From UHGV virus genome UHGV-0128318: 19,979 nucleotides of DNA. One strand, written 5' to 3'. This document shows positions 3,107 to 19,810 of the stretch, piece after piece. The stretch comes from a virus. The stretch's first letter is position 1, and the number at the start of each line of letters is the position of its first letter. Made by a program: the position numbers and the translations under genes. The notes under the pieces were generated by a model. The model was not told where the DNA came from and did no database searches. It saw nothing but the letters and a program-made list of their open reading frames with translations.

Positions 3107-3151
3107 GTTCTCACGCTCTTGAATGGTGGTAGCCCAAGCGGGGGTGAGAAT
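3107..3151 (-). promoter_or_regulatory. Leader target elements upstream of the icd-like RBS: a second copy of the 10-mer gttctcacgc (3107-3116, identical to the RNA loop at 3277-3286) and its partial complement gtgagaa (3144-3150)
   Basis: Exact 10-nt direct repeat 170 bp apart plus a 7-nt inverted copy. This allows either an intramolecular hairpin in the mRNA leader or pairing of the upstream small-RNA loop with the leader. Confidence 0.45.
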
Positions 3152-3234
3152 ACCGGCAAACGAAGAAACCGGCCTGACCGAAGTCAGCCCCGCCTGAGCC
3201 ACCATAAATCGGATATGCGCAGGTATATACACAC

Positions 3235-3256
3235 AAAAAAACACGCTGGCGCGTGT
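3235..3256 (-). terminator. Intrinsic terminator on the minus strand (acacgc-gcca-gcgtgt followed by T7), inside the leader of the antirepressor operon
   Basis: 6-bp GC-rich stem, 4-nt loop, immediate run of 7 T on the minus strand. Confidence 0.6.
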
Positions 3257-3309
3257 TGTGCGCTTCGTTTATCCGGGTTCTCACGCCCGGCTGCGGAATT
3301 TGCCGCAGC
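3235..3309 (-). ncRNA. Candidate c4/CA-type small regulatory RNA of about 75 nt: two stem-loops (3291-3308 ctgcgg/ccgcag; 3273-3290 ccggg/cccgg with loop cgugagaa) followed by the terminator
   Basis: Promoter-like TTGACG-18-TAAAGT on the minus strand (3345-3316) placed about 7 nt before the first stem-loop; loop sequence repeated and complemented in the downstream leader. Matches the known architecture of P1 c4 / P4 CI / N15 CA immunity RNAs. Confidence 0.45.
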
Positions 3310-3315
3310 GGAGTA

Positions 3316-3345
3316 ACTTTACCGTTAAAACGACGCACACGTCAA
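3316..3345 (-). promoter_or_regulatory. Putative sigma70 promoter of the anti-immunity operon (TTGACG-18-TAAAGT)
   Basis: Hexamer match and spacing read from the sequence; no other support. Confidence 0.3.
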
Positions 3346-3761: not shown

Positions 3762-4157
3762 TCAATCAACTTTTTTAGCATCAGCCATACGCTTCAACCA
3801 GTAATCAACAATCGGCTGCTCATCCACAGAATGTTTACCAGGTATAACTCGCCAGCTATCTTGCGAAAATCTGCCGTACTTACGCGGGAATAGGCCTTTC
3901 TTTATCTCCCGCCATGTACTAGGAAAACCATCCACAAAAGTACCAATTAACAGGAGAGGGACAAAAATCAGAGCTACAAACCATCGTGCAAGAAAGTGTT
4001 CAACAACAACATTTTCACCGTTGTAGTAATACGCATACGCATCCAATATGCGAATTTTCCTTACCTTAAAAATAGCCTTATGCTGAGAACGACTTAACTT
4101 GATACGAATGTATCCCTTATCCAAAGGGGATTCGTATTTGTATGATTGAACAGCCAT
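3762..4157 (-). CDS. Single-pass membrane protein, about 131 aa (TM segment FVALIFVPLLLIGTFV); function unknown
   Basis: ATG at 4157-4155 with GGGG at 6-nt spacing; hydrophobic helix in the middle; AT-rich like its downstream neighbour. Confidence 0.5.
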   Translation of the reverse strand: MAVQSYKYESPLDKGYIRIKLSRSQHKAIFKVRKIRILDAYAYYYNGENVVVEHFLARWFVALIFVPLLLIGTFVDGFPSTWREIKKGLFPRKYGRFSQDSWRVIPGKHSVDEQPIVDYWLKRMADAKKVD

Positions 4158-4159
4158 TT

Positions 4160-4486
4160 TTAACCCCACTCACCATCAGCAAACAAAGCGTTATACTCTG
4201 ACAATGGTAGATGGTTGCCCTCGATGTAGAGATTCAGTTCATACTTCGTCTCCGGGTTTTCCTTGTCGGCTCGTTCCCAACGCTCAGCAGCCTCACGCGC
4301 CAATAACTCCACTGCTTTCAGATAATCCTCCGTACGGAACCAGCCAAAGATAAGGCCACGATCTGTTACAGCCCAGGCAACCTTTTTTTCTTCCTCCTGG
4401 ATAGCCTTAATGCGTCGATCGCATTCATCCCGGCAAAACTGCAGCTGACGGTAATCAAGTTTGTCCAAAAATGCAGTAGTAGACAT
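4160..4486 (-). CDS. Hypothetical cytoplasmic protein, 108 aa (MSTTAFLDKLDYRQLQFCRDECDRR...)
   Basis: ATG at 4486 preceded by GGGGAG; the track start at 4564 is an upstream extension without an RBS. Confidence 0.5.
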   Translation of the reverse strand: MSTTAFLDKLDYRQLQFCRDECDRRIKAIQEEEKKVAWAVTDRGLIFGWFRTEDYLKAVELLAREAAERWERADKENPETKYELNLYIEGNHLPLSEYNALFADGEWG

Positions 4487-4490
4487 ATTT

Positions 4491-4589
4491 TTACTCCCCG
4501 TTAACCGAAAAATCACGATAGAAACGTTTCCACATACGATAAGTCTGCGCGAGTTGTTCACCACGAAACATCGCCTTCCTGGCCTTCAT
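4491..4589 (-). CDS. Possible 32-aa micro-ORF (MKARKAMFRGEQLAQTYRMWKRFYRDFSVNGE) between repA and the next gene
   Basis: AAGGAAAA then ATG; its stop overlaps the RBS of the downstream gene. Too short to judge further. Confidence 0.25.
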   Translation of the reverse strand: MKARKAMFRGEQLAQTYRMWKRFYRDFSVNGE

Positions 4590-4674
4590 GTTTTCCTTGT
4601 GAGACTTTCGATCTATGAACCAAAACCATTGCTGGAACACACAAAGCAAGAGACACAAAGATAATATCCACTGA

Positions 4675-7600
4675 TTACCCATAGAAAGCGCCCTGCTCTT
4701 CGTAGCTGCATGGGCTATTCCCGGTAATGTATTCACGTAACCGCCGCAGTTCATTGCTGGATAAGTGATCCATGAACTCTGTGAGGTACAGAGAGGCAAA
4801 CGTCATAGCTATGCTGGCTGATGACCATGATGACATAGTGGCCAGCTCCTCACCGGAAAGCGCACTCATCGCCCAGGACTCAGGTACAACCACTGGCAAC
4901 ACAGCCAAAGCCTCAGAAATTACTGAATGAGGGGCGTTTTGAACCTGCTCGTTTGTGGATCGCGTTTTATCATCCATATATATATTGAGATCCAAATCGC
5001 GATCCATTTCGATGGCGGTCTTCTCGGCTTTACGCGTTTTCAGGGTTAGGCCATCTTTCTGACGCTGAGCAAGAATATCCAGCATAAATGCCGCTGATTC
5101 AGGCTCAACAAAACGCAAGGTTGGACGCTTATCGCCGTCTCTGCCGCGACGTTTACCTGTTTTAAGGCCAAGAGAGTCGCAAATGTTTTTAAACAACGCT
5201 TCCGGCACTTTAGGCTTCCCTTTTGGCGTCATAAAACCACCAATGTGCAGAACGTTATTCAACAGGTCACGGCGTTCGGCTGTCATGAGGTTATCTCGAG
5301 CGAATTTGAGACGCTCCTGAGTCGCCTCGCCGGTCATAGTCTCAGGGTTGATACCGCAGTCGATAAAGTACTGCCGGAGAGTTGCTGATTTAAGCGCATA
5401 GAAACCGCGCGCCCCGACTTCAACAGTAGGAGTAGCTTTTACCTTGTGATCGATTATTCCAGGGAATTTAGTTTTAAAGACATCATCAGCCTGCTCGCGA
5501 GTCATCGCGGTCACTACAAAATATTGCCACTGTCCCGCCTGACGGTATGCGTAGGTAAAATTGATGGCTGCTTCTTCCCGGTCGTAACGACGAGCTGTTA
5601 CCTCATCTAAAAGCATTGTTTCATAGCGGCGAACTTTGTCTCGAGCACCATCGAAATAGAATTTCAGCGTGCCTTCTTCAACCGGTAGTTTCAGTTCGTT
5701 TTCAATATCCCAGCGGACAAGTTTTGCCTGTTCTTCAAGCGTCAGCGCGCGTTTTTTTAGCAGTTCTTCACGCTCTGATTCTTGTGGAGTTTCTGTATTG
5801 AGGTGCAGATCCAGTGTCTGTTCCCACACAATATCCCGCGCTTCTTTACGCAGATCTTTACCGATATCATTCGCAGCATAATCGGTGGCCAGCGGTGATA
5901 CCTTATAACCGTCGCTGTGCATGATGCAGATCATGTTGCTGGCGTAGTCGTTACGCGCAGTCGCTTCAATTGCGGCTGCTTTAATTTTCATCCTGGTAAA
6001 GTCGGTATTGGCCACCCCCATTGATATACGGTCGCCATCGAAAACGACATCCGTAAGTTCACCGTTCATACCTGCGGTAGCAAGCAATGCCTGGGCGAAT
6101 GCTCGTTCTATTTTTTGCGGGTCAGTTTCACGTTTTGCACGAGCTTTATCAAAGCCGATAATAAATTCTTTTGCTGTACGGTCGCGGCGTAGCATTTGCA
6201 CTGCGTCGCTGGGTACAACTTCACCACAGAACATGCCGAAATGACGGTCAAAATGTTTTTGCTCAATCGACACGCCGGATGAAATAGACGGGCTATAAAT
6301 CAGGCCGTCGTATTTTTTGACCATCTTTTTCGGTTGATTGGTAAATGCTTCAACTTCTGGCTCTGGTTTGTTTTTCTGGTTTACACACAGAAATTTCTTA
6401 CCAGGAAAATGCATTCTCAGGGTGGCTGTCACATCTTCTGCAAAGGTGGAGCTGTCGGTGGCCAACATGATTTTTTCGCCATCCGATACAGCTTTCACCA
6501 CCTCGGTCATGATGCGATCTTTTTCTGTATAAAAAACCCGGATTGGCTCACCTGTTTCGCGGTTGCGAACATCAACAGGTAATTCAATTACGTGGATCTG
6601 CAGCCATGCCGGTAAACCTAGTTCTTCACGGCGTTTCATAGCCAGTTCAGCCAGGTCAACCAGTAGATCGTTCGCATCAGCATCCACCATGATTGGGTGT
6701 TGTTCCGTTCTGGCCAGCGCGTCAATTAGCGTATTGAATACAGCAACCGGGTTTTCCATAGCCCGACCGGAAAGAACGGCACGTAGCCCTTGCGTGGCCT
6801 CGTCAAAGCCAAAATAGTCGTGCTGGCGCATCAACGGTTGCCAGCAGTTTTTAACAATCGAGTTTATGCAGATGGTCAGTTTACTGGCGTATGGAGCCAT
6901 TTCCTGATAGCCAGGGTCCTGATAGTGCAGGATATCGGCTTTTACACCTTTTCCTTCTGTCATCATTTCCCACAGGCCACCAATAAGGGAGACACGGTGA
7001 GCAACAGAGATACCACGTTCTGAGCTATGCATTAACGGTCGTAACAATCCAGTAGATTTGCCGGAACCCATACCAGCACGGACGATGACTATCCCCTGTA
7101 GTGATTGCACGTACTTCAGGACATCATCGGTCATTACCGAAGTTTCAAAACGCTTATAGGTGATATGTTGAGGGCGTTTATTGGGATCAGTTATGCGTTC
7201 GCTGAAAGAGCGCGGAGCCTGGGCAATACGGCACTTTTTATTCAGGCGACGGGCAATGTGGTCTTTTACCGTAGCGCGATAGATATTTTCCAGTCCCATT
7301 TCACGCAGAACGATGCAGAACATGTTAAATAAATCTGACGGACTGTTAGGAACCGGGCAGGTTAGCATGCCAATATCCACCGCTCTCAGCAGCTCTTTGG
7401 CAAAAGTACGACGGTTATCCCGCTTAATTGTCTTCAGGCGGTTGAGCGTCAGAGATAGCAAATCAGTGCCAGTTTTCAGGCGGTTTGCAGTTGCAAACAG
7501 TTGACGTGCTGTTTCACGAAGTCCACGTAGTTTGTGCAGGTCGTTGAAGTCACTGCACTCCATTTGCGGATCGTCTTCAAAAGTTGGATAGACGCAGCGG

Positions 7601-8664
7601 ACATCGTTGAATTTCGATAAGATTTCATAGCCAGTCCGCAGGCCGGTATTCCCTTTTCCTTCTGTAGCTGATTTCCGGTCATTATCCAGTGCGCAGGTGA
7701 TTTTTGCCGCCGGGTACATGTTTACCAGTTGTTCCACAACATGAACCATGTTGTTAGCGGATACAGCGACAACCACAGCGTCAAAGCGTTTATCTTTTTT
7801 CGTGGCAAGCCAGATGGATGCACCAGTAGCAAAACCTTCTGTAACAGCGATGTTTTGCGCCCCTTTCAGCTCACCGATAACAAAGCAGGCACCGACGAAA
7901 TCGCCGCTGGTTACGGCGCTGGTCTGGTATTTTCCACCTTGTTTGTCGATTCGCTGCCAACCAACAATACGACCATCGTAACGACCGTCCAGGTGAGCCA
8001 GAGGGATAGCCATATACGTGGTTGGCCCCCTGCTCCATTTTGCGCTGTCGTGACTGGTCACGCGACGCACATCACACGAATTAAAAACGTCACGAATACC
8101 TTTTTTAATCGCATATGGCCATGAGCCGTCTTCTGCAGGAGCATGTTCCCAAGCACTGTGGAATGCCAGCCATCCCAGCAAACGTTCATGGTCCATTTGG
8201 TTGTTTTTCAGGTCATTAATTCGTTTTTGTTCTTCACGGCGACGACGTGCTTCACGTTCTATTCTTGCCCGTTCTTCTTCCGGTTGTGCGACCACGGTCG
8301 CATTATTCCGTTGTTGCTCACGGCGATATTCAGAAAACAGGAAGGAGAAACCGCTCCATGAGCCAGCATCGCTGCCTTTATGGACGAAGTTAATGAACGG
8401 GTAATCAATCCCTTTGCTGTGTTCCAGTCGGGAGTAAATTTCTACGCGTCCTTTGAGGCTCTTCTCGAGAGCTTCTGGAGATGTTTTATTGTATGAAGAG
8501 TAACGCTCAACACCCCCGCGAGGGTTGAGTTGGATGTTGTCGGAACAGGCAGACCAGTTGATACCAGCCATCTGTGCCAGCTCGGTTAGTTCATCCCGTG
8601 CTGCTTCAATTAGCGAGAACGGATCGCTGCCAAAGCGATCCGCATAGAAATCGTTTAATGTCAT
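4675..8664 (-). CDS. repA: RepA-type multidomain replication protein (primase-helicase), 1329 aa, with a Walker A motif (GMGSGKST)
   Basis: Size and position (next to cB, transcribed away from cro) match N15 repA, which is about 1.3 kaa; NTP-binding motif seen. All + strand track ORFs between 5616 and 8404 are antisense artefacts of this gene. Confidence 0.9.
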   Translation of the reverse strand: MTLNDFYADRFGSDPFSLIEAARDELTELAQMAGINWSACSDNIQLNPRGGVERYSSYNKTSPEALEKSLKGRVEIYSRLEHSKGIDYPFINFVHKGSDAGSWSGFSFLFSEYRREQQRNNATVVAQPEEERARIEREARRRREEQKRINDLKNNQMDHERLLGWLAFHSAWEHAPAEDGSWPYAIKKGIRDVFNSCDVRRVTSHDSAKWSRGPTTYMAIPLAHLDGRYDGRIVGWQRIDKQGGKYQTSAVTSGDFVGACFVIGELKGAQNIAVTEGFATGASIWLATKKDKRFDAVVVAVSANNMVHVVEQLVNMYPAAKITCALDNDRKSATEGKGNTGLRTGYEILSKFNDVRCVYPTFEDDPQMECSDFNDLHKLRGLRETARQLFATANRLKTGTDLLSLTLNRLKTIKRDNRRTFAKELLRAVDIGMLTCPVPNSPSDLFNMFCIVLREMGLENIYRATVKDHIARRLNKKCRIAQAPRSFSERITDPNKRPQHITYKRFETSVMTDDVLKYVQSLQGIVIVRAGMGSGKSTGLLRPLMHSSERGISVAHRVSLIGGLWEMMTEGKGVKADILHYQDPGYQEMAPYASKLTICINSIVKNCWQPLMRQHDYFGFDEATQGLRAVLSGRAMENPVAVFNTLIDALARTEQHPIMVDADANDLLVDLAELAMKRREELGLPAWLQIHVIELPVDVRNRETGEPIRVFYTEKDRIMTEVVKAVSDGEKIMLATDSSTFAEDVTATLRMHFPGKKFLCVNQKNKPEPEVEAFTNQPKKMVKKYDGLIYSPSISSGVSIEQKHFDRHFGMFCGEVVPSDAVQMLRRDRTAKEFIIGFDKARAKRETDPQKIERAFAQALLATAGMNGELTDVVFDGDRISMGVANTDFTRMKIKAAAIEATARNDYASNMICIMHSDGYKVSPLATDYAANDIGKDLRKEARDIVWEQTLDLHLNTETPQESEREELLKKRALTLEEQAKLVRWDIENELKLPVEEGTLKFYFDGARDKVRRYETMLLDEVTARRYDREEAAINFTYAYRQAGQWQYFVVTAMTREQADDVFKTKFPGIIDHKVKATPTVEVGARGFYALKSATLRQYFIDCGINPETMTGEATQERLKFARDNLMTAERRDLLNNVLHIGGFMTPKGKPKVPEALFKNICDSLGLKTGKRRGRDGDKRPTLRFVEPESAAFMLDILAQRQKDGLTLKTRKAEKTAIEMDRDLDLNIYMDDKTRSTNEQVQNAPHSVISEALAVLPVVVPESWAMSALSGEELATMSSWSSASIAMTFASLYLTEFMDHLSSNELRRLREYITGNSPCSYEEQGAFYG
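4950..5010. other. Candidate internal replication origin element: AT-rich stretch (catatatatatt) with three GATC sites within about 50 bp, inside the 3' end of repA
   Basis: Seen in sequence; N15 ori is known to lie within the 3' part of repA. Confidence 0.3.
8049..8062. repeat. Family-2 palindrome cgtgactggtcacg inside the repA 5' coding region
   Basis: Perfect 6-bp arms around a 2-bp centre; same core as 3366-3385 and 14369-14382. Confidence 0.6.
8287..8302. repeat. SopB-type centromere-like palindrome tgcgacc-ac-ggtcgca (family 1), inside repA coding sequence
   Basis: 7-bp perfect arms; core GACCACGGTC resembles the F sopC binding site TGGGACCACGGTCCCA; four more copies in the window. 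Confidence 0.5.
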
Positions 8665-8909: not shown

Positions 8910-9506
8910 TCATCTACCCTCAACCATGAATGATTTGATCGTTCCGACTATTTGGTGAACAAATTCAAGATCGCTTTTCCTGAAGATGGCGCGTTGTGAG
9001 TTTGTTCCATCCAGATAGTAATTTTCATCATCAAAACGGGCCAGGCGCTGGATAGTGATATTTCCTGCAGTATCACGAACCAGAACATCCTCGCCGGGGA
9101 CCAGTTCCAGCGCAGAATCGACCAGGAGAAAATCGCCTGGCTGATAGTTTCCCTGCGTAAGATTGCTGATAGTTAACGCATACACAGTATTGCGCTGGCT
9201 GATGAATGGCAGGAATCGCTCAGTATTTGGAACCTGTCCCGGCTTCCACTCTTCATCCGGCCCACTTTCAGTTGTGCCAATAACAGGAATGCGATCAGGG
9301 TCATATTCTGTCCCATATAGCACCCAATGCACTGGCTTGCGTAAGCACTTAGCCAGGGCAATACCTATCTCCAGTGACGGCATTACGTCGCCACGTTCTA
9401 AGTTTTGGACGCCTGCTATAGAGATATCGACAGCCTCAGCAACTTCTCGCAACGTCAGCTTCATCTCTAAACGGCGTGCTTTCAGTCGTTCGCCTCGTGT
9501 TTTCAT
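8910..9506 (-). CDS. cB: Prophage repressor CB (lambda CI-like: N-terminal HTH, C-terminal S24/LexA-like domain), 198 aa
   Basis: HTH region LTLREVAEAVDISIAGVQNLERG at the N-terminus and a C-terminal domain of repressor size; divergent from cro across an operator region. Confidence 0.85.
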   Translation of the reverse strand: MKTRGERLKARRLEMKLTLREVAEAVDISIAGVQNLERGDVMPSLEIGIALAKCLRKPVHWVLYGTEYDPDRIPVIGTTESGPDEEWKPGQVPNTERFLPFISQRNTVYALTISNLTQGNYQPGDFLLVDSALELVPGEDVLVRDTAGNITIQRLARFDDENYYLDGTNSQRAIFRKSDLEFVHQIVGTIKSFMVEGR

Positions 9507-9597: not shown

Positions 9598-9819
9598 ATG
9601 AAACCAGAAGAACTTATTCGCCATTTTGGCAGTGTAGAAAAAGCAGCGGCAGGGGTAGGTGTAACACCCGGAGCTGTTTACCAATGGTTAACCGCTGGAG
9701 AGATTCCTTCATTGCGGCAAAGCGATATTGAAGTTCGTACTGCTTATAAGCTGAAGAGTGACTTTACAACTCGGCGGGTAAAGCAGTCGATTAAGGAGAG
9801 TCGTAAGCGTGGAGCTTGA
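9598..9819 (+). CDS. cro: Cro-like small HTH regulator, 73 aa (MKPEELIRHFGSVEKAAAGVGVTPGAVYQWL...)
   Basis: Divergent from cB; HTH motif; ATG at 9598 preferred over the track's TTG at 9571. A TATAAT hexamer sits at 9586-9591 only 6 nt upstream, so the mRNA may be leaderless. Confidence 0.7.
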   Translation: MKPEELIRHFGSVEKAAAGVGVTPGAVYQWLTAGEIPSLRQSDIEVRTAYKLKSDFTTRRVKQSIKESRKRGA

Positions 9820-10519
9820 GTATATACGCAGCTGCGTCTCTACGGCATTGGCTGATGTTCATTATCTCCAGCGTGGCATTCTGGAGGTCCAGCTTGAGCA
9901 GATGCGTCTCGGTAGATCAGGACGGTTTAACAATAAACCAGTCCGGTCAATCAGTGTGGGGGATGATAACTCATACGAAGTGTCCGTTTCTGCTGAGCCG
10001 GTTAGATTCCATCAGGGGAAAACATTTAAACAATCATCAATGTTGCTCACTGATATTGATTTTCAGAGCGCCAGCTGGCGCAGGGCTATTGGTCAGTTGA
10101 ATAACGAGGAATCAGCCTGGCTTTATTATTGCTACGGATGCAAGCCTGATTACAACAATGATGTGATTGTTTGTCAGTGGTTATGGCTTGATTTTCTGGT
10201 TGCTCATTCGGGGGGCGGCTTTAAAAAAATGAAGGCCTCCACGAAAAAAGCTATGCGAAAATTGATTTATTACGCGGCACAACAGGTTAAATCAGAACTT
10301 ACGTGTGCTGAGGCAGTTGATGAGAGAGAACAGGACAGGCATCTGAGTTTTCTACTGAATATATCTATTGATAGCTGGAGACAAGATTATAAAGAACGCT
10401 GGCTTTTAATTAAGTCGCGATGTCTGAGCTTAAATCGAACTGCATTATTAAATGCGGCGGAGAAGCGCAGTGAAATCATCAAACGCCATCGGGCAGGAAG
10501 TGCCATTCTGCCTTTGTAA
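9809..10519 (+). CDS. Putative late-gene antiterminator (Q-like by position), 236 aa with CxxC (CYGC)
   Basis: Immediately downstream of and overlapping cro, as Q is in N15/lambdoid phages; the family assignment is positional only. Confidence 0.45.
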   Translation: MELEYIRSCVSTALADVHYLQRGILEVQLEQMRLGRSGRFNNKPVRSISVGDDNSYEVSVSAEPVRFHQGKTFKQSSMLLTDIDFQSASWRRAIGQLNNEESAWLYYCYGCKPDYNNDVIVCQWLWLDFLVAHSGGGFKKMKASTKKAMRKLIYYAAQQVKSELTCAEAVDEREQDRHLSFLLNISIDSWRQDYKERWLLIKSRCLSLNRTALLNAAEKRSEIIKRHRAGSAILPL

Positions 10520-10772
10520 ACAAGTTATGTTCAGGAAACCGTCGAAGCCAGAATTAAGGTATTCGGGGGTAAGAAATGAATATGTTATCTGGTGTCCAAC
10601 TTGTGGTTATAGGACACGACCAGATAGTAATAAGCAGTCTGTAATTGCCGATTGGTATTTATCAAATCAGCCAGGTAATAAGCATATAGAAAATCTTTGG
10701 ATTAAGCGTTACTTGGAAATCAGAGAGGGTGCGACCGTGGTCGCACAAGAAAATGAAAATAACGCCATTTAA
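10470..10772 (+). CDS. Zinc-ribbon small protein, possibly Lar-family (restriction alleviation-like): PFCLC ... WCPTCGY ... SVIADWY
   Basis: GTG at 10470 with GGAG at 7-nt spacing, overlapping the Q-like 3' end by 50 nt; an alternative ATG at 10527 loses the first Cys pair. Confidence 0.35.
   Translation: MKSSNAIGQEVPFCLCKQVMFRKPSKPELRYSGVRNEYVIWCPTCGYRTRPDSNKQSVIADWYLSNQPGNKHIENLWIKRYLEIREGATVVAQENENNAI
10729..10746. repeat. SopB-type centromere-like palindrome gtgcgacc-gt-ggtcgcac (family 1), within coding sequence
   Basis: 8-bp perfect arms. Confidence 0.5.
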
Positions 10773-14962: not shown

Positions 14963-15250
14963 TTAATAAACAGCGCGAATATCGATGGCTGCGCCGCAGG
15001 CATGAGCATATTTAGCCAAAGTTTTCATACTTGCCCCTAAAGGATTGCTTTCCAGGCGGCTGATGGCTGACGGTCGTAACCCCATTCGTTCAGCCAGAGC
15101 TGATTTCGTTAAACCTGCTCTTTCCCTCATTTCGTATAACATTTCGACCATCTCCAGCTCTTTGTCGGCCTCTTCATATCCTTTGACGGCTTCTGGAGTG
15201 TTGAGGAGTTTTTCTTTTACTTCGTTAAACGGGATGCCTTTCGCTTTCAT
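14963..15250 (-). CDS. HTH (XRE-family) antitoxin, HigA-like, 95 aa
   Basis: HTH segment LTKSALAERMGLRPSAISRLES; translationally coupled (ATGA) to the upstream toxin gene. Confidence 0.75.
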   Translation of the reverse strand: MKAKGIPFNEVKEKLLNTPEAVKGYEEADKELEMVEMLYEMRERAGLTKSALAERMGLRPSAISRLESNPLGASMKTLAKYAHACGAAIDIRAVY

Positions 15251-15561
15251 CAGTTCATCTCCTTCAGGCGAGTTCTGGCGATTTCGATAGCCTTCACCGG
15301 TGTTTTCTGTGTCTTTTTTACAAATGCATGCAATAGATAAATTTCGTTACCAGTCGCGTAGGCGTACAGCGTTCTTGCGATGTTTTTATCCCCTACTCGT
15401 AGTTCAAAAAGCCCTCCACCTATTACACGGCTATGGGGCATCTTCAGTTTGTTGCCTTCTTTCTCCAGTCGCTCAATTAATCTGGCCATGCGACCTCGCA
15501 AATCATCTGGTAGTTCAAGCAGTTCATCCAGTGCTGCAGGGTGGGTTATCACGTTAAACAT
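15250..15561 (-). CDS. Gp49-like (RelE/HigB-fold) toxin, about 103 aa (MFNVITHPAALDEL...LLHAFVKKTQKTP...)
   Basis: Hallmark LLHAFVKKTQKTP motif of the Gp49-like family; ATG at 15561 with GGAGG at about 8 nt; the track's longer start lacks an RBS. Confidence 0.8.
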   Translation of the reverse strand: MFNVITHPAALDELLELPDDLRGRMARLIERLEKEGNKLKMPHSRVIGGGLFELRVGDKNIARTLYAYATGNEIYLLHAFVKKTQKTPVKAIEIARTRLKEMN

Positions 15562-15726
15562 ATTATAGCCTCCACATCCATAAAATACACCAAAACAAGA
15601 AAACAACGCAAATTAAAAATTTCATTAAAAAGCGAAAAATAACACTGGATGTGTTCGTTTGGCAGAGTTACAGTTCGTGTCATTGAGGGGCAATAACCCA
15701 CTAACTATATGAATTTGGAGGATATT

Positions 15727-15948
15727 ATGAATTATCAAGGTAACGAAAAAATGCGCGGCGACGTTGCGGAGATAGCTAACGAACTGTATGAGTTGTGGCA
15801 GAAGGTTGAACGTTTCGAAAAGGAATATGGTTTCAACAGTACCAACCTAACAGACCGACTGGCTGGTCGCTTAGTTGGGACTATGGGGCCAAAACTGGCT
15901 GAGTTGAACAGCTTTATGGCTGATGTTGATTTCCAGTTTCAAGATTGA
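15727..15948 (+). CDS. Hypothetical small protein, 73 aa
   Basis: ATG at 15727 with GGAGG at 8 nt. Confidence 0.45.
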   Translation: MNYQGNEKMRGDVAEIANELYELWQKVERFEKEYGFNSTNLTDRLAGRLVGTMGPKLAELNSFMADVDFQFQD

Positions 15949-15961
15949 TTAGAGAGGCGTT

Positions 15962-16189
15962 ATGAATATTAATGAAATTCGTGGAAATATGACTGAAGCG
16001 GCCCTGAGTGTGGAATGTGTTATGCGTGGATACCCACACATTTCCCTGAAAGAGTTAAGCGAAGCCTGTTTTTTGAGTCAAGCTGCCGTTGAATTTATCA
16101 TCGAACAGATGATCTGTTTTGGGGTTGCAAAGCGTAGCGGATCTGGTCGATATTCTTTGACCGATGAATATAAGCAGGCAACTTTCTAA
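15962..16189 (+). CDS. Hypothetical small protein, 75 aa, possibly winged-helix
   Basis: ORF with RBS GAGAGG. Confidence 0.45.
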   Translation: MNINEIRGNMTEAALSVECVMRGYPHISLKELSEACFLSQAAVEFIIEQMICFGVAKRSGSGRYSLTDEYKQATF

Positions 16190-16193
16190 AAGC

Positions 16194-16213
16194 TGTGCGA
16201 CCACGGTCGCACA
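16194..16213. repeat. SopB-type centromere-like palindrome tgtgcgacc-ac-ggtcgcaca (family 1), intergenic
   Basis: 9-bp perfect arms, 5 nt after the stop of the preceding gene. Confidence 0.5.
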
Positions 16214-16298
16214 GCACAAAAACGAAAAAGCTTGGCAAAATGACGGTTTTTAGTTATTGTTTTGTTAAGTTGGGTTTTTTGTACCCAACAGCCAACAA

Positions 16299-16321
16299 GC
16301 CGCCTTTATGGCGGTTTTTTT
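16299..16321 (+). terminator. Intrinsic terminator (gccgcc-tttat-ggcgg then T7)
   Basis: GC stem with a U-tract; preceded by a second hairpin gttgggt-ttttttgt-acccaac. Confidence 0.7.
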
Positions 16322-16338
16322 GTGCCTGAAAAGTGGGC

Positions 16339-16364
16339 GCAGGACAAGTTGCAGCTTGTCCTGC
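16339..16364. promoter_or_regulatory. Perfect 10-bp inverted repeat gcaggacaag-ttgcag-cttgtcctgc upstream of the methyltransferase gene
   Basis: Seen directly; no U-tract follows, so more likely an operator or RNA structure than a terminator. Confidence 0.4.
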
Positions 16365-16408
16365 GGTCAACCCATGCCAGAGCTATAGGCTGAACCTAAA
16401 GCCCACCC

Positions 16409-16422
16409 GCGATGCGCATCGC
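16409..16422. promoter_or_regulatory. Perfect 14-bp palindrome gcgatgcgcatcgc overlapping the first in-frame ATG of the methyltransferase ORF
   Basis: Seen directly. Confidence 0.4.
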
Positions 16423-17533
16423 CGGGTTAGCTTACCCAGGCAAAAAAATAATAGCTATGTTCAAAACCACTAATATTCATGGCGCACAACTCGTTTGCGC
16501 AGATTCTCTGCAATTTATCAAAACCATCCCTGATAACTCGGTCAATTTGATTGCAACAGACCCACCATACTTCGGCGTAAAGGCTAACGCATGGGATAAC
16601 CAGTGGGATAGCGATGCTGACTTTTTGGGGTGGATTGACGAATTTTTGGCAGAATTTTGGCGGATATTGGCCCCTAATGGCAGCCTGTATATGTTTACCG
16701 GCTCTCGCCTTGCGTCAAAAATTGAATTATTAACTCGCGACCGTTTCAATGTTCTGAACCATATCATTTGGGCTAAACCCAGTGGTATGTGGCGCGGTTG
16801 TCATAAAGAAAGTTTAAGGGCTTATTTTCCTGCTACTGAAAGAATATTATTTGCAGAGCATTACGGCGCGTCAGGTTATGCTAAAGGTCAGTCAGGTTAT
16901 GCTTCAAAATGTGCAGATTTAAGAAAAAATATTTTTTCTCCACTAATTGATGCTTTTTCGCTGGCTCGCCGTCAGTTAGATATATCAGCCGCAGACATTA
17001 ATTCAGCGACAGGAAAGCAGATGTGTTCACACTGGTTTTCTTATTCGCAGTGGCGGCTTCCATCATTAATTGATTTTAATAAACTATGCGAATTATTTCG
17101 CAGGAAGGCAGATTCACTCGGTGTCCCGTGTCCATATCCTTTTAATGTTGATTATTCAGAACATGAAAAGCGTTATAGCGATCTGAAATTGCATTATGAG
17201 GAAGTAAAGAAGCAGTATGATGATTTGAAGGCTCAGTATGAAAATTTACGCCGTCCATTTCATGTTACTGCTGATGTACCTTATACCGATGTATGGGAGT
17301 TTCCTCCTGTGCAATATTATCCTGGCAAGCACCCATGTGAAAAACCTGCAGCGATGATGGAACATATTATAAAGAGTAGTTCACGCCCCGGAGATATCGT
17401 TGCCGATTTCTTTATGGGATCAGGCTCAACTATTAAAGCTGCGCTGAAGTTAGGACGTCAGGCAATAGGTATTGAGATTGAGGGCGAACGTTATCTTCAG
17501 ACAGTTGATGAAGTGAAAAAGTTATTTGAGTAA
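16412..17533 (+). CDS. Orphan DNA methyltransferase of the N6-adenine/N4-cytosine amino-MTase family (beta-class: DPPY motif N-terminal, FxGxG motif C-terminal)
   Basis: Motifs IATDPPYF and DFFMGSGST; no adjacent restriction endonuclease gene. The true start may be the ATG at 16457 (MFKTTNIHG...). Confidence 0.85.
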   Translation: MRIAGLAYPGKKIIAMFKTTNIHGAQLVCADSLQFIKTIPDNSVNLIATDPPYFGVKANAWDNQWDSDADFLGWIDEFLAEFWRILAPNGSLYMFTGSRLASKIELLTRDRFNVLNHIIWAKPSGMWRGCHKESLRAYFPATERILFAEHYGASGYAKGQSGYASKCADLRKNIFSPLIDAFSLARRQLDISAADINSATGKQMCSHWFSYSQWRLPSLIDFNKLCELFRRKADSLGVPCPYPFNVDYSEHEKRYSDLKLHYEEVKKQYDDLKAQYENLRRPFHVTADVPYTDVWEFPPVQYYPGKHPCEKPAAMMEHIIKSSSRPGDIVADFFMGSGSTIKAALKLGRQAIGIEIEGERYLQTVDEVKKLFE

Positions 17534-17628
17534 CTGGAGAATATATTCCCCTGCCGTTTTTGGTAGGGGTTATTTTCGCCATATAGTTTCCAAGCCGAAA
17601 CCTCAGCAACTATTGCGAGGTAAGAGAT

Positions 17629-17901
17629 ATGAAGATGGATGAACGATACAGCAGTGCATCTTATGGTAGCGCCGGTCTTGCTGCGTTCTTTGCCAGCCTG
17701 TCATTGCAGGATTGGGGCTTCATTATCGGTGTCGCGTTCAGCATTATCCTCGGTGTGCTTACATACCGGCTCAATAAACGCGAGCAGATGAAGCGCACGA
17801 AGATATTGCAGGAGATATTGGATAAAACTAATACCAATAATCTTTCTGCTACAGCGATGGTTATTGGAGAGCTGGGGAAGAGAGCACCGAAGGAAATATG
17901 A
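17629..17901 (+). CDS. Class II holin (pinholin-like, two TM segments), 90 aa
   Basis: Two hydrophobic helices followed by a charged C-terminus; immediately upstream of and overlapping the endolysin start. Confidence 0.7.
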
Positions 17902-18398
17902 TGCAGTCATCATTACGCAAAGCTGTTACAGCTGCTATTGGTGGCGGGGCTATTGCCATAGCGTCTATGCTCATCACTGGCCCAAGTGGTAACGATGGTC
18001 TGGAAGGTGTCAGTTACATACCATACAAAGATATTGTTGGCGTATGGACTGTATGTTACGGACACACTGGAAAAGACATCATGCTAGGTAAAACGTATAC
18101 CGAAGCAGAATGCAAAGCTCTCCTGAATAAAGACCTTGCCACTGTCGCCAGACAAATTAACCCGTACATCAAAGTCGATATACCGGAAACAACGCGCGGC
18201 GCTCTTTACTCGTTCGTTTACAACGTGGGCGCTGGTAATTTCAGAACATCGACGCTTCTTCGCAAAATAAACCAGGGCGATATCAAAGGCGCATGTGATC
18301 AGCTACGTCGCTGGATATCTGCTGGCGGTAAGCAATGGAAAGGCCTGATGACTCGTCGTGAGATTGAGCGTGAAGTCTGTTTGTGGGGTCAACAATGA
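17898..18398 (+). CDS. SAR endolysin (phage lysozyme, T4-lysozyme/GH24-like, with N-terminal signal-anchor-release domain)
   Basis: Gly/Ala-rich N-terminal TM ([20 protein letters not shown]) and catalytic region [14 protein letters not shown]; ATGA overlap with the holin. Confidence 0.85.
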
Positions 18399-18862
18399 GC
18401 AGAGTAACCGCAATTATCTCCGCACTGGTTATCTGCATCATCGTCTGCCTGTCGTGGGCTGTTAATCATTACCGTGATAACGCCATCGCCTACAAAGAAC
18501 AGCGTGATAAAAAAGTCAGTGAGCTGAAGCAGGCGACCGCCACCATCGCTGACATGCAGCAGCGTCAGCGTGATGTTGCTGCGCTCGATGCAAAATACAC
18601 GAAGGAGTTGGCTGATGCGAAAGCTGAAAATGATGCTCTTCGGCGCAAGCTTGATAATGGTGGTCGGGTGCTCGTCAAAGGAAAATGCTCTGTGCCATCC
18701 TCAGCCGAAACCTCCAGCGCCTCCGGCATGGGCAATGATGCCACCGTCGAACTCTCTCCAGTTGCTGGACGAAACGTTCTCGGTATCCGGGACGGAATCA
18801 TCAGAGACCAGACAGCACTGAGAACGCTTCAGGAATACATCAAGACGCAATGCCCGAATTAA
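18395..18862 (+). CDS. Rz-like i-spanin (N-terminal TM, coiled-coil periplasmic domain)
   Basis: ATG overlaps the endolysin stop (ATGA); TM segment [14 protein letters not shown]; contains the embedded Rz1 frame. Confidence 0.75.
18615..18821 (+). CDS. Rz1-like o-spanin lipoprotein embedded in the +1 frame of Rz (lipobox ...IMVVGC, Pro-rich mature part)
   Basis: ATG at 18615 with GAAGGAG at 7 nt; signal peptide with lipobox Cys; [10 protein letters not shown] typical of Rz1. Confidence 0.7.
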
Positions 18863-18903
18863 TCCCTCTGTATCAAAAACGAACTCAATTTGTTGGATAG
18901 TGA

Positions 18904-19215
18904 ATGAAAATTTATATTGCCGGGCCAATGACTGGATATGAGAACTTTAATCGTGACGCCTTTAATAAAGAGGCAGATCGTTTGTCACGACATGGTCACT
19001 CTGTCTTGAATCCAGCCACTTTGCCTAATGGTCTGACACAACGTGAATACATGGATATTTGCTTTGCAATGCTTCGTTGTGCTGATGCTATTTTGATGCT
19101 TCCTGGCTGGAAAGCGTCTGCTGGAGCAACTGCTGAGTATCATTACGCATACAAGATGGAGATGCCGGTATTCACTACGCTGAATTACCCGCCAGCTTGT
19201 TCCTCTGTAGCATAA
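18904..19215 (+). CDS. DUF4406-like protein (nucleoside 2-deoxyribosyltransferase-like fold), 103 aa
   Basis: MKIYIAGPMTG ... NPA ... CDAILMLPGWKASAGA pattern recalled for this family. Confidence 0.55.
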   Translation: MKIYIAGPMTGYENFNRDAFNKEADRLSRHGHSVLNPATLPNGLTQREYMDICFAMLRCADAILMLPGWKASAGATAEYHYAYKMEMPVFTTLNYPPACSSVA

Positions 19216-19233
19216 AAATCTCTTTGTTTCTCG

Positions 19234-19253
19234 TGTGCGACCGTGGTCGCACA
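19234..19253. repeat. SopB-type centromere-like palindrome tgtgcgacc-gt-ggtcgcaca (family 1)
   Basis: 9-bp perfect arms. Confidence 0.5.
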
Positions 19254-19453
19254 TTAAATACCGCGCTGCATCGTCGCCGTATTTCCGCATTAACCATGAC
19301 CGTAGCCCGACGGGGAACTCCTCTGCGCGAGTGTGCGGAAATAATCAAAAACGATGCACACCGGGTTTTTACCGCGCTAATGATTCGCGGGTTTGTCCCT
19401 CATGCTCGCCAGTCCTGTGCGAGGGTGGAAGAAACAGGGCATGTATTCAGGAG

Positions 19454-19473
19454 CGTGCGACCGTGGTCGCACG
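19454..19473. repeat. SopB-type centromere-like palindrome cgtgcgacc-gt-ggtcgcacg (family 1)
   Basis: 9-bp perfect arms; 200 bp downstream of the previous copy. Confidence 0.5.
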
Positions 19474-19495
19474 GTATCTTTGTCAGGAGGTTTTG

Positions 19496-19810
19496 ATGAA
19501 AGAGTTGCAAAAAATTAATTCAATAATGGAAAGATTAAGTGCTCTTGAGCGTAAGCTGGACGATTGTGGAAAGCTGTGTGTTGAAAAGCAAAATGAGCTT
19601 TACCGGGAATTTTTTACAATCGTAAGTGAGCTGATGCCAATTGTTAATAACTGCCTGATGACATCCAGATTTTTTAATGTCGATGCTACTACATCCAGAA
19701 AATTTTCTGTGAAAATTCAAGAAAGAGTTTCTGGTAGTGTGACAAGAGAGATGGCTGAACAGTTGGTGGCAATGAGCAATAAAACAAAAAGAAAAAAGCA
19801 TTGCTTGTAA
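19496..19810 (+). CDS. AT-rich moron-like gene, 104 aa, unknown function (N-terminal coiled-coil, basic C-terminus)
   Basis: ATG with AGGAGG at 6 nt; by eye about 35% GC against a roughly 50% GC background; located between the lysis cassette and cos. Confidence 0.5.
   Translation: MKELQKINSIMERLSALERKLDDCGKLCVEKQNELYREFFTIVSELMPIVNNCLMTSRFFNVDATTSRKFSVKIQERVSGSVTREMAEQLVAMSNKTKRKKHCL

Follow-up and report, generated by a model that had tools for sequence, protein, structure and literature searches.

What does an orphan DNA methyltransferase do in a phage genome when its gene stands behind a terminator and two perfect palindromes, and how is it kept under control? The question is raised by UHGV virus genome UHGV-0128318, of which one stretch of 19,979 nucleotides (hereafter the window) was analysed, and in particular by positions 16190-17533, where an initial annotation made from the letters alone had placed an amino-methyltransferase gene preceded by a centromere-like site, an intrinsic terminator, a 10-bp inverted repeat and a 14-bp palindrome. 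The comparisons described below favour a two-layer explanation, to which a probability of roughly 0.55 was assigned: the gene, a member of the M.EcoGII family, would be controlled by a Q-like antiterminator, and the stretch holding the palindromes would encode a conserved folded RNA, likely antisense to the methyltransferase leader. The first layer is well supported; of the second, the folded element itself, its covariation, its distribution and its linkage to the methyltransferase gene are shown, and its strand, promoter, 3' end and regulatory effect are proposed. The methyltransferase and the late-operon switch are known biology; the folded element in front of the gene is the new part.

The methyltransferase and its late-operon switch

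The open reading frame (ORF) 16412-17533 matched the Pfam family PF01555 (N6_N4_Mtase) with 159.8 bits (E = 1.2e-46; curated cut-off 26.7), and in the translated protein the DPPY motif (residues 35-38, 16559-16570) precedes FFMGSG (residues 318-323, about 17408-17425), which is the order of the beta class, so the class first proposed holds. Both DPPY and FxGxG align to those of M.RsrI and M.EcoGII. Identities in tblastn comparisons were 83.8% for gp52 of phage N15, 61% for phiKO2 gp52, 58% for PY54 gp60 and 57% for a Stx2-phage protein named "DNA methylase". Against M.EcoGII, the sequence of which was machine-read from Supplementary Table S1 of PMC11551740 and may contain small errors, identity was 56% over 359 aligned positions with a single 9-residue gap, the homology spanning the central recognition domain (M.EcoGII residues 160-237); against the reconstructed nonspecific ancestor SUPREM/Anc284 it was 61%.

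Residue 1 of M.EcoGII aligned to the ATG at 16457, and the equivalent ATG was the start common to all seven aligned orthologues. The gene, at 16457-17533 on the plus strand, is accordingly described here as that of an orphan N6-adenine DNA methyltransferase of the beta class; it belongs to the M.EcoGII family, is orthologous to N15 gp52 and encodes 358 aa from the corrected start. The ATG at 16412, which had been offered as the other candidate start, was ruled out because the orthologues use the equivalent of 16457 and the palindromes of the phiKO2 type have no ATG. In the N15 record (L001) gene 52 is annotated from 4280, and the homology and the shared start begin at 4046 (4046-5134); the deposited N15 gp52 probably lacks about 78 N-terminal codons. 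An inverted repeat, CACTGT...ACAGTG, is conserved at codons 4-12 of the methyltransferase gene in many relatives (for instance L029 and L049) and is not present in the gene of the window.

M.EcoGII methylates adenine in any context, is silent in its native lysogen and slows growth when overexpressed, and anti-restriction is the accepted role of its family (PMC5778455). The enzyme of the window is probably a broad adenine methyltransferase used against restriction, and likely a sequence-nonspecific one. The anti-restriction role suggested by the initial annotation is thus the family's accepted reading, and the target sequence, which it gave as unknown, is narrowed in part by the 56% identity to M.EcoGII and the 61% identity to the nonspecific ancestor, the specificity itself being what we infer from them. 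M.EcoGII and M.EcoGI, nonspecific adenine methyltransferases encoded by prophages in E. coli O104:H4 (PMC5778455, PMC11551740), share with the window enzyme the beta-class motif order, the prophage location, the lack of a nuclease and a position just after the late-gene switch. The window protein differs from M.EcoGII in 44% of its residues, and the linker that follows the recognition domain differs by an insertion of nine residues; the replicon of M.EcoGII is an integrated lambdoid prophage, whereas that of the window is a linear plasmid-prophage.

No nuclease family was matched by the ORFs of the window in the profile scans, and the methyltransferase gene is solitary in N15, phiKO2 and PY54 as well as in Stx2, Hafnia, Providencia, Morganella and Vibrio phages, eight further cases in line with the missing restriction partner remarked on at the outset. 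Several small ORFs of the window have no assigned function, which would leave room for the enzyme to be one half of a restriction-modification system with a nearby or unrecognised nuclease. This is extremely improbable, given that none of the ORFs scanned belonged to a nuclease family, that the gene stands alone between the Q/late promoter region and the lysis genes in N15, phiKO2, PY54, Stx2-type, Hafnia, Providencia and Morganella phages, and that a nonspecific adenine methyltransferase has no meaningful cognate nuclease.

Upstream of the gene, a SopB-binding centromere repeat of the N15 type occupies 16192-16215; the arms of this inverted repeat match at 11 of 11 positions, and some 20 bp separate it from the -35 of the late promoter downstream. 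Its core (16195-16212, GTGCGACCACGGTCGCAC) is identical to the N15 centromere site IR4 (oligonucleotide table, PMC7205306), and the centromere-like site of the initial annotation is therefore an exact N15 SopB site; the phiKO2 record labels the equivalent repeat 'putative plasmid partitioning site'. The window contains five N15-type SopB sites GTGCGACCNNGGTCGCAC, of which one has a single mismatch, against a chance expectation of none (8286-8303, 10729-10746, 16195-16212, 19235-19252 and 19455-19472). Two of them lie inside the ORF 19235-19810 and one directly after the Q-like gene.

The promoter scan placed a late promoter, TTGGCA-17-TATTGT, at 16232-16260 on the plus strand (-35 at 16232-16237, -10 at 16255-16260), the equivalent of lambda pR', and its two hexamers align with the annotated late promoters of N15 and phiKO2. 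The first transcribed bases contain a -10-like sequence, TAAGTTGGG (16266-16274, plus strand), which, by analogy with lambdoid pR' promoters, we take to be a sigma70-dependent pause site for Q loading; TAAGTTGG is invariant in the seven aligned relatives, PY54 included. It is followed by an intrinsic terminator on the plus strand at 16297-16321 (16297-16317 in the terminator scan), the equivalent of lambda tR', in which GCCGCC-TTTAT-GGCGG and seven T span 16299-16321, where a terminator had first been proposed; it is orthologous to the annotated N15 and phiKO2 terminators. The Q-like antiterminator gene lies at 9809-10519 on the plus strand (phrog_304, 'anti-termination protein Q-like', E = 1.5e-71). 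The order gp51 stop, SopB repeat, -35/-10, TAAGTTGGG, small hairpin and terminator was common to the alignment with N15, phiKO2, Kpn74, PY54 and others, and the N15 genome (NC_001901) has the order gp50-gp51, SopB inverted repeat, late promoter, terminator, methyltransferase, terminator and holin, as in the window. The late-promoter transcript (16250-16323) resembled the Rfam family AgrB (RF02891) with 27.3 bits (gathering score 40, E = 0.016), probably merely because of a common hairpin-plus-terminator shape.

Because the promoter and terminator match the N15 and phiKO2 annotation and a Q-like gene is present, the insulation of the methyltransferase is, as judged from sequence comparison, the known N15 late-operon arrangement with lambdoid pR'/tR' logic, and the idea that the gene is insulated and regulated was correct and finds its explanation in this arrangement of SopB site, promoter, terminator and Q. 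Lambda pR', 6S RNA and tR' offer the same constitutive late promoter, -10-like pause sequence, short terminated transcript and Q-family protein from the early region; the window differs from lambda in that its N15-type Q is encoded 6 kb from the promoter, a partition site abuts the promoter and the first late gene is a methyltransferase behind the folded element. In the prophage, transcripts from the late promoter would stop at the terminator and the methyltransferase would remain silent; in lytic growth the Q-like protein would make the polymerase terminator-resistant, and the methyltransferase would be produced together with the lysis and virion genes. As the first gene product of the late operon it would methylate progeny DNA widely, the targets probably being adenines in most or all contexts, which would protect that DNA against many restriction systems. 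The SopB site beside the promoter would couple the late switch to the partition system, and the N15 Sop system reportedly facilitates late, Q-dependent gene expression (Ravin, Rech and Lane 2008, J Bacteriol 190:3538, cited in PMC11652158).

The folded element between terminator and start codon

Both palindromic features of the initial annotation are present at the positions given. The inverted repeat has 10-bp arms (16339-16348 and 16355-16364) and can be lengthened to 14 nt (16338-16365) with 93% complementarity; the 14-bp palindrome GCGATGCGCATCGC at 16409-16422 is perfect and contains the ATG at 16412. By simple arithmetic 20 kb should hold about 1.2 perfect 14-bp palindromes (20,000 x 4^-7), so that one alone is not significant, and the expectation for a 10-bp stem at one given spacing is about 0.02; the repeats were taken as real features because compensatory change conserves them in relatives. 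In the alignment with N15, phiKO2, Kpn74, PY54 and others, the stretch from the terminator to the ATG conserves pairing and not sequence, and it forms a structured element (16320-16456, with the minus strand comparatively favoured) of about 110-135 nt, composed of a three-way junction and a separate hairpin. In the junction, P1 joins 16333-16338 to 16401-16406 (UGGGC:GCCCA), P2 is a long variable hairpin coinciding with the 10-bp inverted repeat (16339-16364) and P3 is a second hairpin (16365-16396); the separate hairpin, P4 (16406-16426), holds the 14-bp palindrome. Downstream of P4 comes a near-invariant AGCYTA, and then the methyltransferase ATG.

An approach with MAFFT and RNAalifold on the plus strand recovered P1 alone, the helices being misaligned, and covariance models built for each strand were used instead. 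These found exactly one copy per locus, with E-values down to 1e-39; the window itself scored 40.4 bits (E = 2.6e-7) with the minus-sense model R2 and 43.5 bits (16329-16459) with the plus-sense model R1. Among 43-44 distinct sequences, 91.2% of the pairing cells were paired in the plus sense and 94.8% in the minus sense, compared with 70-74% in shuffles and 28-55% in slid controls. With 89 distinct sequences in the minus sense, 93.6% of the cells paired vs 80.3% in shuffles and 29-57% in slid controls, and double changes occurred at 29 of the 34 pairs; in the plus sense, with 90 distinct sequences, 88.8% of the cells paired. Two-sided changes were seen at 26-29 pairs (89-90 sequences), and no shuffle attained the observed values. 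The alignments were fitted by covariance models and are biased toward the modelled structure, which tells against the RNA interpretation; even so, the slid controls and the many different pair types make a chance origin of the pairing very unlikely.

The arms of P2 and P4 vary between clades and maintain their complementarity. The sequence of P2 is free, with double changes at 11 of its 12 pairs and with asymmetric loops, and P2 behaves as an RNA-like helix rather than a simple operator site. In N15, whose leader is about 90% identical to that of the window, the P2 substitutions leave one C.A on the plus strand that corresponds to G.U on the minus strand. The suggestion that a regulator binds the 10-bp repeat does not fit a sequence that varies while its pairing is kept by double substitutions. 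For the 14-bp palindrome of P4 the same suggestion keeps some ground: every one of the 29 distinct variants of P4 has a perfect even palindrome at its apex (TGCGCA, TGTGCACA, TACGCGTA, GCGCGC, CCGATCGG), and the two innermost positions change together, as from TGTGCACA to TACGCGTA, though they cannot pair within the hairpin. Such a self-complementary apex points to loop-loop (kissing) pairing between RNAs or to a dimeric protein on double-stranded DNA.

The second of these would make the palindromes DNA operators at which a dimeric regulator controls transcription of the methyltransferase, and two candidate regulators are at hand. Beta-class methyltransferases act as dimers (PMC7544214), and a small gp51-like gene with weak winged-helix similarity lies just upstream (15962-16189, plus strand; phrog_331, E = 2.9e-32), with counterparts in N15 gp51, phiKO2 gp51, the Stx2 phage (L003, 3155-3352) and phages of Hafnia, Providencia and Morganella. 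All phage groups examined have such a gene upstream of the folded element; in the Stx2 phage the TrmB/HTH_24 matches of L003 3155-3352 were weak and under the Pfam cut-offs. No pattern of co-variation was found between the P4 core and either the winged-helix protein or the recognition domain of the methyltransferase: identical winged-helix proteins occurred with differing P4 cores, and the same core with differing winged-helix proteins and recognition domains. This uncoupling, the conservation of complementarity and not of sequence in P2, the covariation of the flanking arms of P4 and the fact that an RNA kissing-loop dimerisation would explain the self-complementary loop equally well make an operator role improbable, in spite of the constant symmetry of the apex and of the winged-helix-like gene always found upstream.

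The element was closely tied to the methyltransferase gene. A set of 80 viral loci centred on the methyltransferase yielded 44 distinct element sequences, and about a quarter of the methyltransferase loci carry other upstream regions. A DNA pattern search independent of the protein found 120 further instances, 114 of which had the methyltransferase start exactly 22 nt after AGCCTA; the remainder consisted of four alignment offsets or probable pseudogenes, one contig end and one apparent chance match, so that the element stood directly upstream of an M.EcoGII-family gene in 118 of the 119 interpretable instances. It was recovered from N15-like, phiKO2/PY54-like and Stx/lambdoid phages, and from named phages of Hafnia, Providencia, Morganella and Vibrio. 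The lambdoid version was present in 2104 of 5426 complete E. coli genomes (about 40%), with up to seven copies per genome (E. coli copies number 3,666), and the annotation beneath it was of the methyltransferase and a hypothetical protein alone. A near-identical arrangement precedes the Stx2-phage homologue, whose protein shares 94% identity with M.EcoGII. In Stx2, Hafnia, Providencia and Morganella phages the methyltransferase homologue comes just after Q, and in the Stx2 phage the element is placed between Q and the toxin genes. A lambdoid module found in several genera (L003, 2559-4562; L092-L094) consists of Q, the winged-helix-like gene, the element and the methyltransferase, followed by tRNAs and stx2 or by lysis genes.

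Neither the element nor a methyltransferase was found at this position in the prophage parts of E. coli O157 Sakai (Sp3, Sp4, Sp11 and Sp15). In two of them the slot behind Q and the small gene holds a 195-aa 'regulatory protein' in place of the methyltransferase (L089, part of Sp11, 5433-6020; L091, Sp4, 18804-19391), and O157 strains other than Sakai carry 4-7 copies of the element. The Hfq-bound small RNAs of Sakai map elsewhere (PMC4104026), and the prophage small RNAs of Tree et al. 2014 lie 3' of moron genes, away from the element. Since the Sakai prophage regions examined lack the element, these published Hfq data do not bear on it.

No family of Rfam 15 reached its gathering score in the element on either strand in the window, Stx2, L049 and phiKO2 versions, and a permissive search (E up to 10) returned chance-level matches to its hairpins only. 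The SAM/SAH riboswitch families were without an Rfam match to the element, and a tRNA-like or ribozyme reading of the three-way junction was dropped for lack of Rfam support. In the full-text literature the sequence of the element was encountered as a PCR primer only; the M.EcoGII papers do not mention an upstream element, and no description of a folded element was found for the N15 late-control region. Within the literature that could be searched, the folded element is apparently undescribed.

Choice of strand and possible mode of action

Several comparisons separate the two strands of the element, most clearly at P3, where pairing was 96.5% in the minus sense vs 77.7% in the plus sense. The P3 mismatches of the plus strand were A.C in 74 cases and G.U in 4, the signature of a helix maintained on the opposite strand; two P3 positions that form U.G or G.U in 52-56 of 89 sequences read on the minus strand fail to pair in 52-58 of 90 read on the plus strand, and one subgroup had all ten pairs of P3 canonical on the minus strand in 24 of 24 sequences. 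P1 gains two more pairs on the minus strand only. The RNAalifold consensus energy was -40.8 kcal/mol for the minus strand vs -23.1 for the plus strand, and minimum-energy folds of the minus strand gave the same three-way junction in nearly all of 20 representatives, drawn from every clade, and in all three sequences folded separately, whereas those of the plus strand varied by clade. The three-way junction has probably been selected mainly on the minus strand.

A candidate -10 element for a minus-strand transcript is the near-invariant hexamer at 16429-16434 (AGCTTA on the plus strand, TAAGCT on the minus strand), which had the form TARGCT in 42 of 43 distinct sequences and lay exactly 22 nt from the methyltransferase ATG in 43 of 43. 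A consensus scan for sigma70 promoters found no consistent strong one on the minus strand, leaving the weak conserved TGnTARGCT, which the standard promoter scan did not report; other minus-strand candidates were set aside because they are located in conserved coding sequence. Downstream of P1, runs of 4-6 U occur in the N15, phiKO2 and L049 types. The minus-strand RNA would start a few bases past TAAGCT, just before P4, and end after P1 at the short U run; this putative antisense RNA, about 105-115 nt long, would be complementary over its whole length to the methyltransferase 5' leader. Its proposed task is to neutralise messages that leak through the terminator and carry a toxic, nonspecific methyltransferase and the late operon that follows: the two RNAs would form a duplex, leading to cleavage or premature termination, and the antisense RNA would be overwhelmed once Q drives abundant transcription of the locus. 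A role as guard against leaky expression of the methyltransferase and late operon is one that we infer by analogy.

Small cis-antisense RNAs are familiar from lambda OOP and paQ, hok/sok, symE/SymR and the antisense RNAs of restriction-modification genes. The proposed RNA would resemble them as a small structured RNA opposite the 5' part of a harmful gene, with stem-loops mirrored on both strands; it differs in having no sequence or Rfam relationship with them, in its distinct three-way junction and self-complementary hairpin and in that its transcript, promoter and effect are putative. In its fullest form, the proposal would be of a widespread, undescribed RNA gene opposite the leaders of the M.EcoGII family, an antitoxin-like antisense guard that silences a toxic, sequence-nonspecific DNA/RNA adenine methyltransferase and the head of the late operon in lysogens, possibly with P4 acting as a kissing loop like a retroviral dimerisation site; its range would take in N15-like plasmid-prophages, Stx and other lambdoid prophages, and Klebsiella, Yersinia, Hafnia, Providencia, Morganella and Vibrio phages. 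That form is offered tentatively, at well short of even odds.

A number of observations weigh against an antisense RNA as the second layer. The candidate promoter is a poor match to the consensus (TAnnnT plus TGn), and TGn precedes TARGCT in all groups but the N15 group, so that it is missing in the window. The U run after P1 is merely 2-3 U long in the L039 and Stx2 types. Pairing in P2 is neutral as to strand (90.4% vs 91.6%), the plus strand shows wobbles of its own (U.G in AUGGGCG:CGCCCGU, G.U in ARGC:GCYU and also in the P2 helix of the Stx2 and L049 clades), and single-sequence z-scores do not tell the strands apart. Transcription of the plus strand in lytic growth is certain, and the element may have an additional role, or constraints of its own, in the sense strand. 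On the side of the enzyme, nonspecific methylation is extrapolated at 56% identity, and specificity can shift within one family.

Some of these points can be read as evidence for a cis-acting 5' leader of the methyltransferase mRNA on the plus strand, in which alternative folds, the three-way junction on one side and an extended P2 hairpin with a second domain occluding the region before the AUG on the other, would control translation of a start without a Shine-Dalgarno sequence. Such a leader is necessarily transcribed as part of the late operon, a canonical Shine-Dalgarno sequence is not present before the methyltransferase ATG, the spacing of 22 nt between AGCYTA and the ATG is invariant, and the mutually exclusive pairings AUGGGCG:CGCCCGU and ARGC:GCYU carry the plus-strand wobbles. 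A small zinc-ribbon ORF resembling Com of phage Mu, a translational activator, stands between element and methyltransferase in two phages, and a different class of leader in Vibrio-type relatives clearly folds on the plus strand. The P3 data argue the other way, with about 78% of pairs formed on the plus strand vs about 96% on the minus strand and with mismatches that are nearly always A.C (74) and seldom G.U (4), as do the plus-strand minimum-energy folds, which are inconsistent across clades. Sense-strand control by the leader is thus a possible but unlikely account of the element, and the antisense RNA remains the reading preferred here for the second layer.

The two phages with a Com-like ORF (36-38 aa) are Vibrio phage ST2-1pr (L095, 1331-1441) and L084 (1355-1471); against PF10122 the first scored 26.2 bits, above the cut-off, and the second 16.6 bits, below it, and in both the distance from hexamer to ATG is 16-17 nt and not 22. 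The com-mom system of phage Mu is comparable as a late, potentially toxic DNA-modification gene under post-transcriptional control, with Com as a zinc-finger translation activator; it differs in that com is missing from the window, the Mu leader is unrelated and Mom is no methyltransferase.

Twelve loci have another kind of upstream region, about 175 nt ahead of the methyltransferase ATG (L041, L043-L047, L058, L060, L064, L068, L070 and L079). It has a perfect LexA box, CTGTATAAAAATACAG, followed by a conserved leader different from that of the main element; GCCUUGAGUAC/GUAUUCAAGGC closes this leader, which also contains CCUGAGACCC...GGAGAGGAAGC and an ordinary ribosome site, GGAG. This leader folds on the plus strand (-42.2 vs -28.2 kcal/mol) and had no Rfam match. 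Its core, UUGAGUACCNGAGACCC...GGAGAGGA, was also seen between a tR'-like terminator and the main element in L095 (1143-1192) and L084 (1172-1215), and therefore the two conserved motifs can occur in tandem.

The replicon and the meaning of the element

Escherichia phages YDC107_1 and PhiR46_1 shared 97.5% identity with the region 15600-18000, and Klebsiella phage phiKO2 about 74%; among complete E. coli genomes the exact region occurred 16 times, in each case on a plasmid of 36-63 kb. These phage identities, together with the replication, repressor, Q-like, C4/isrK and lysis genes and the five SopB repeats, identify the window, on its sequence content, as an N15-like linear plasmid-prophage. 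The replication gene encodes a primase/helicase-like protein of 1329 aa. A repressor-like ORF (8910-9506) adjoins the Q-like gene, and Rfam matches above the gathering score at 3122-3322 on the minus strand, to C4 antisense RNA (82 bits), isrK (68 bits) and c4-a1b1 (49 bits), mark an anti-immunity RNA locus of the P1/N15 type. Holin, lysozyme and Rz genes were found by the Pfam scan; the holin gene (17629-17901) follows the methyltransferase gene and a plus-strand terminator-like hairpin at 17548-17576 (terminator scan), and the N15 and phiKO2 records have a terminator in the equivalent place.

On the minus strand, a Gp49/HigB-like ORF (15250-15606) and an HTH_3 ORF (14963-15250) form a toxin-antitoxin-like pair, the counterparts of N15 genes 49 and 48. 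A restriction-alleviation ORF of the Lar type (10452-10772, plus strand; phrog_6795, E = 1.5e-45) overlaps the end of the Q-like gene and represents a second anti-restriction function of the same phage.

M.EcoGII is widely used in chromatin footprinting and in RNA methylation tools, and the folded element adjoins genes of its family; it is carried by about two fifths of complete E. coli genomes, Shiga-toxin phages included. If control by an antisense RNA or a leader is true, it would explain how lysogens tolerate a gene that is harmful when uncontrolled, and the late operon, which also drives the toxin and lysis genes, would be subject to one more regulatory step at its outset.

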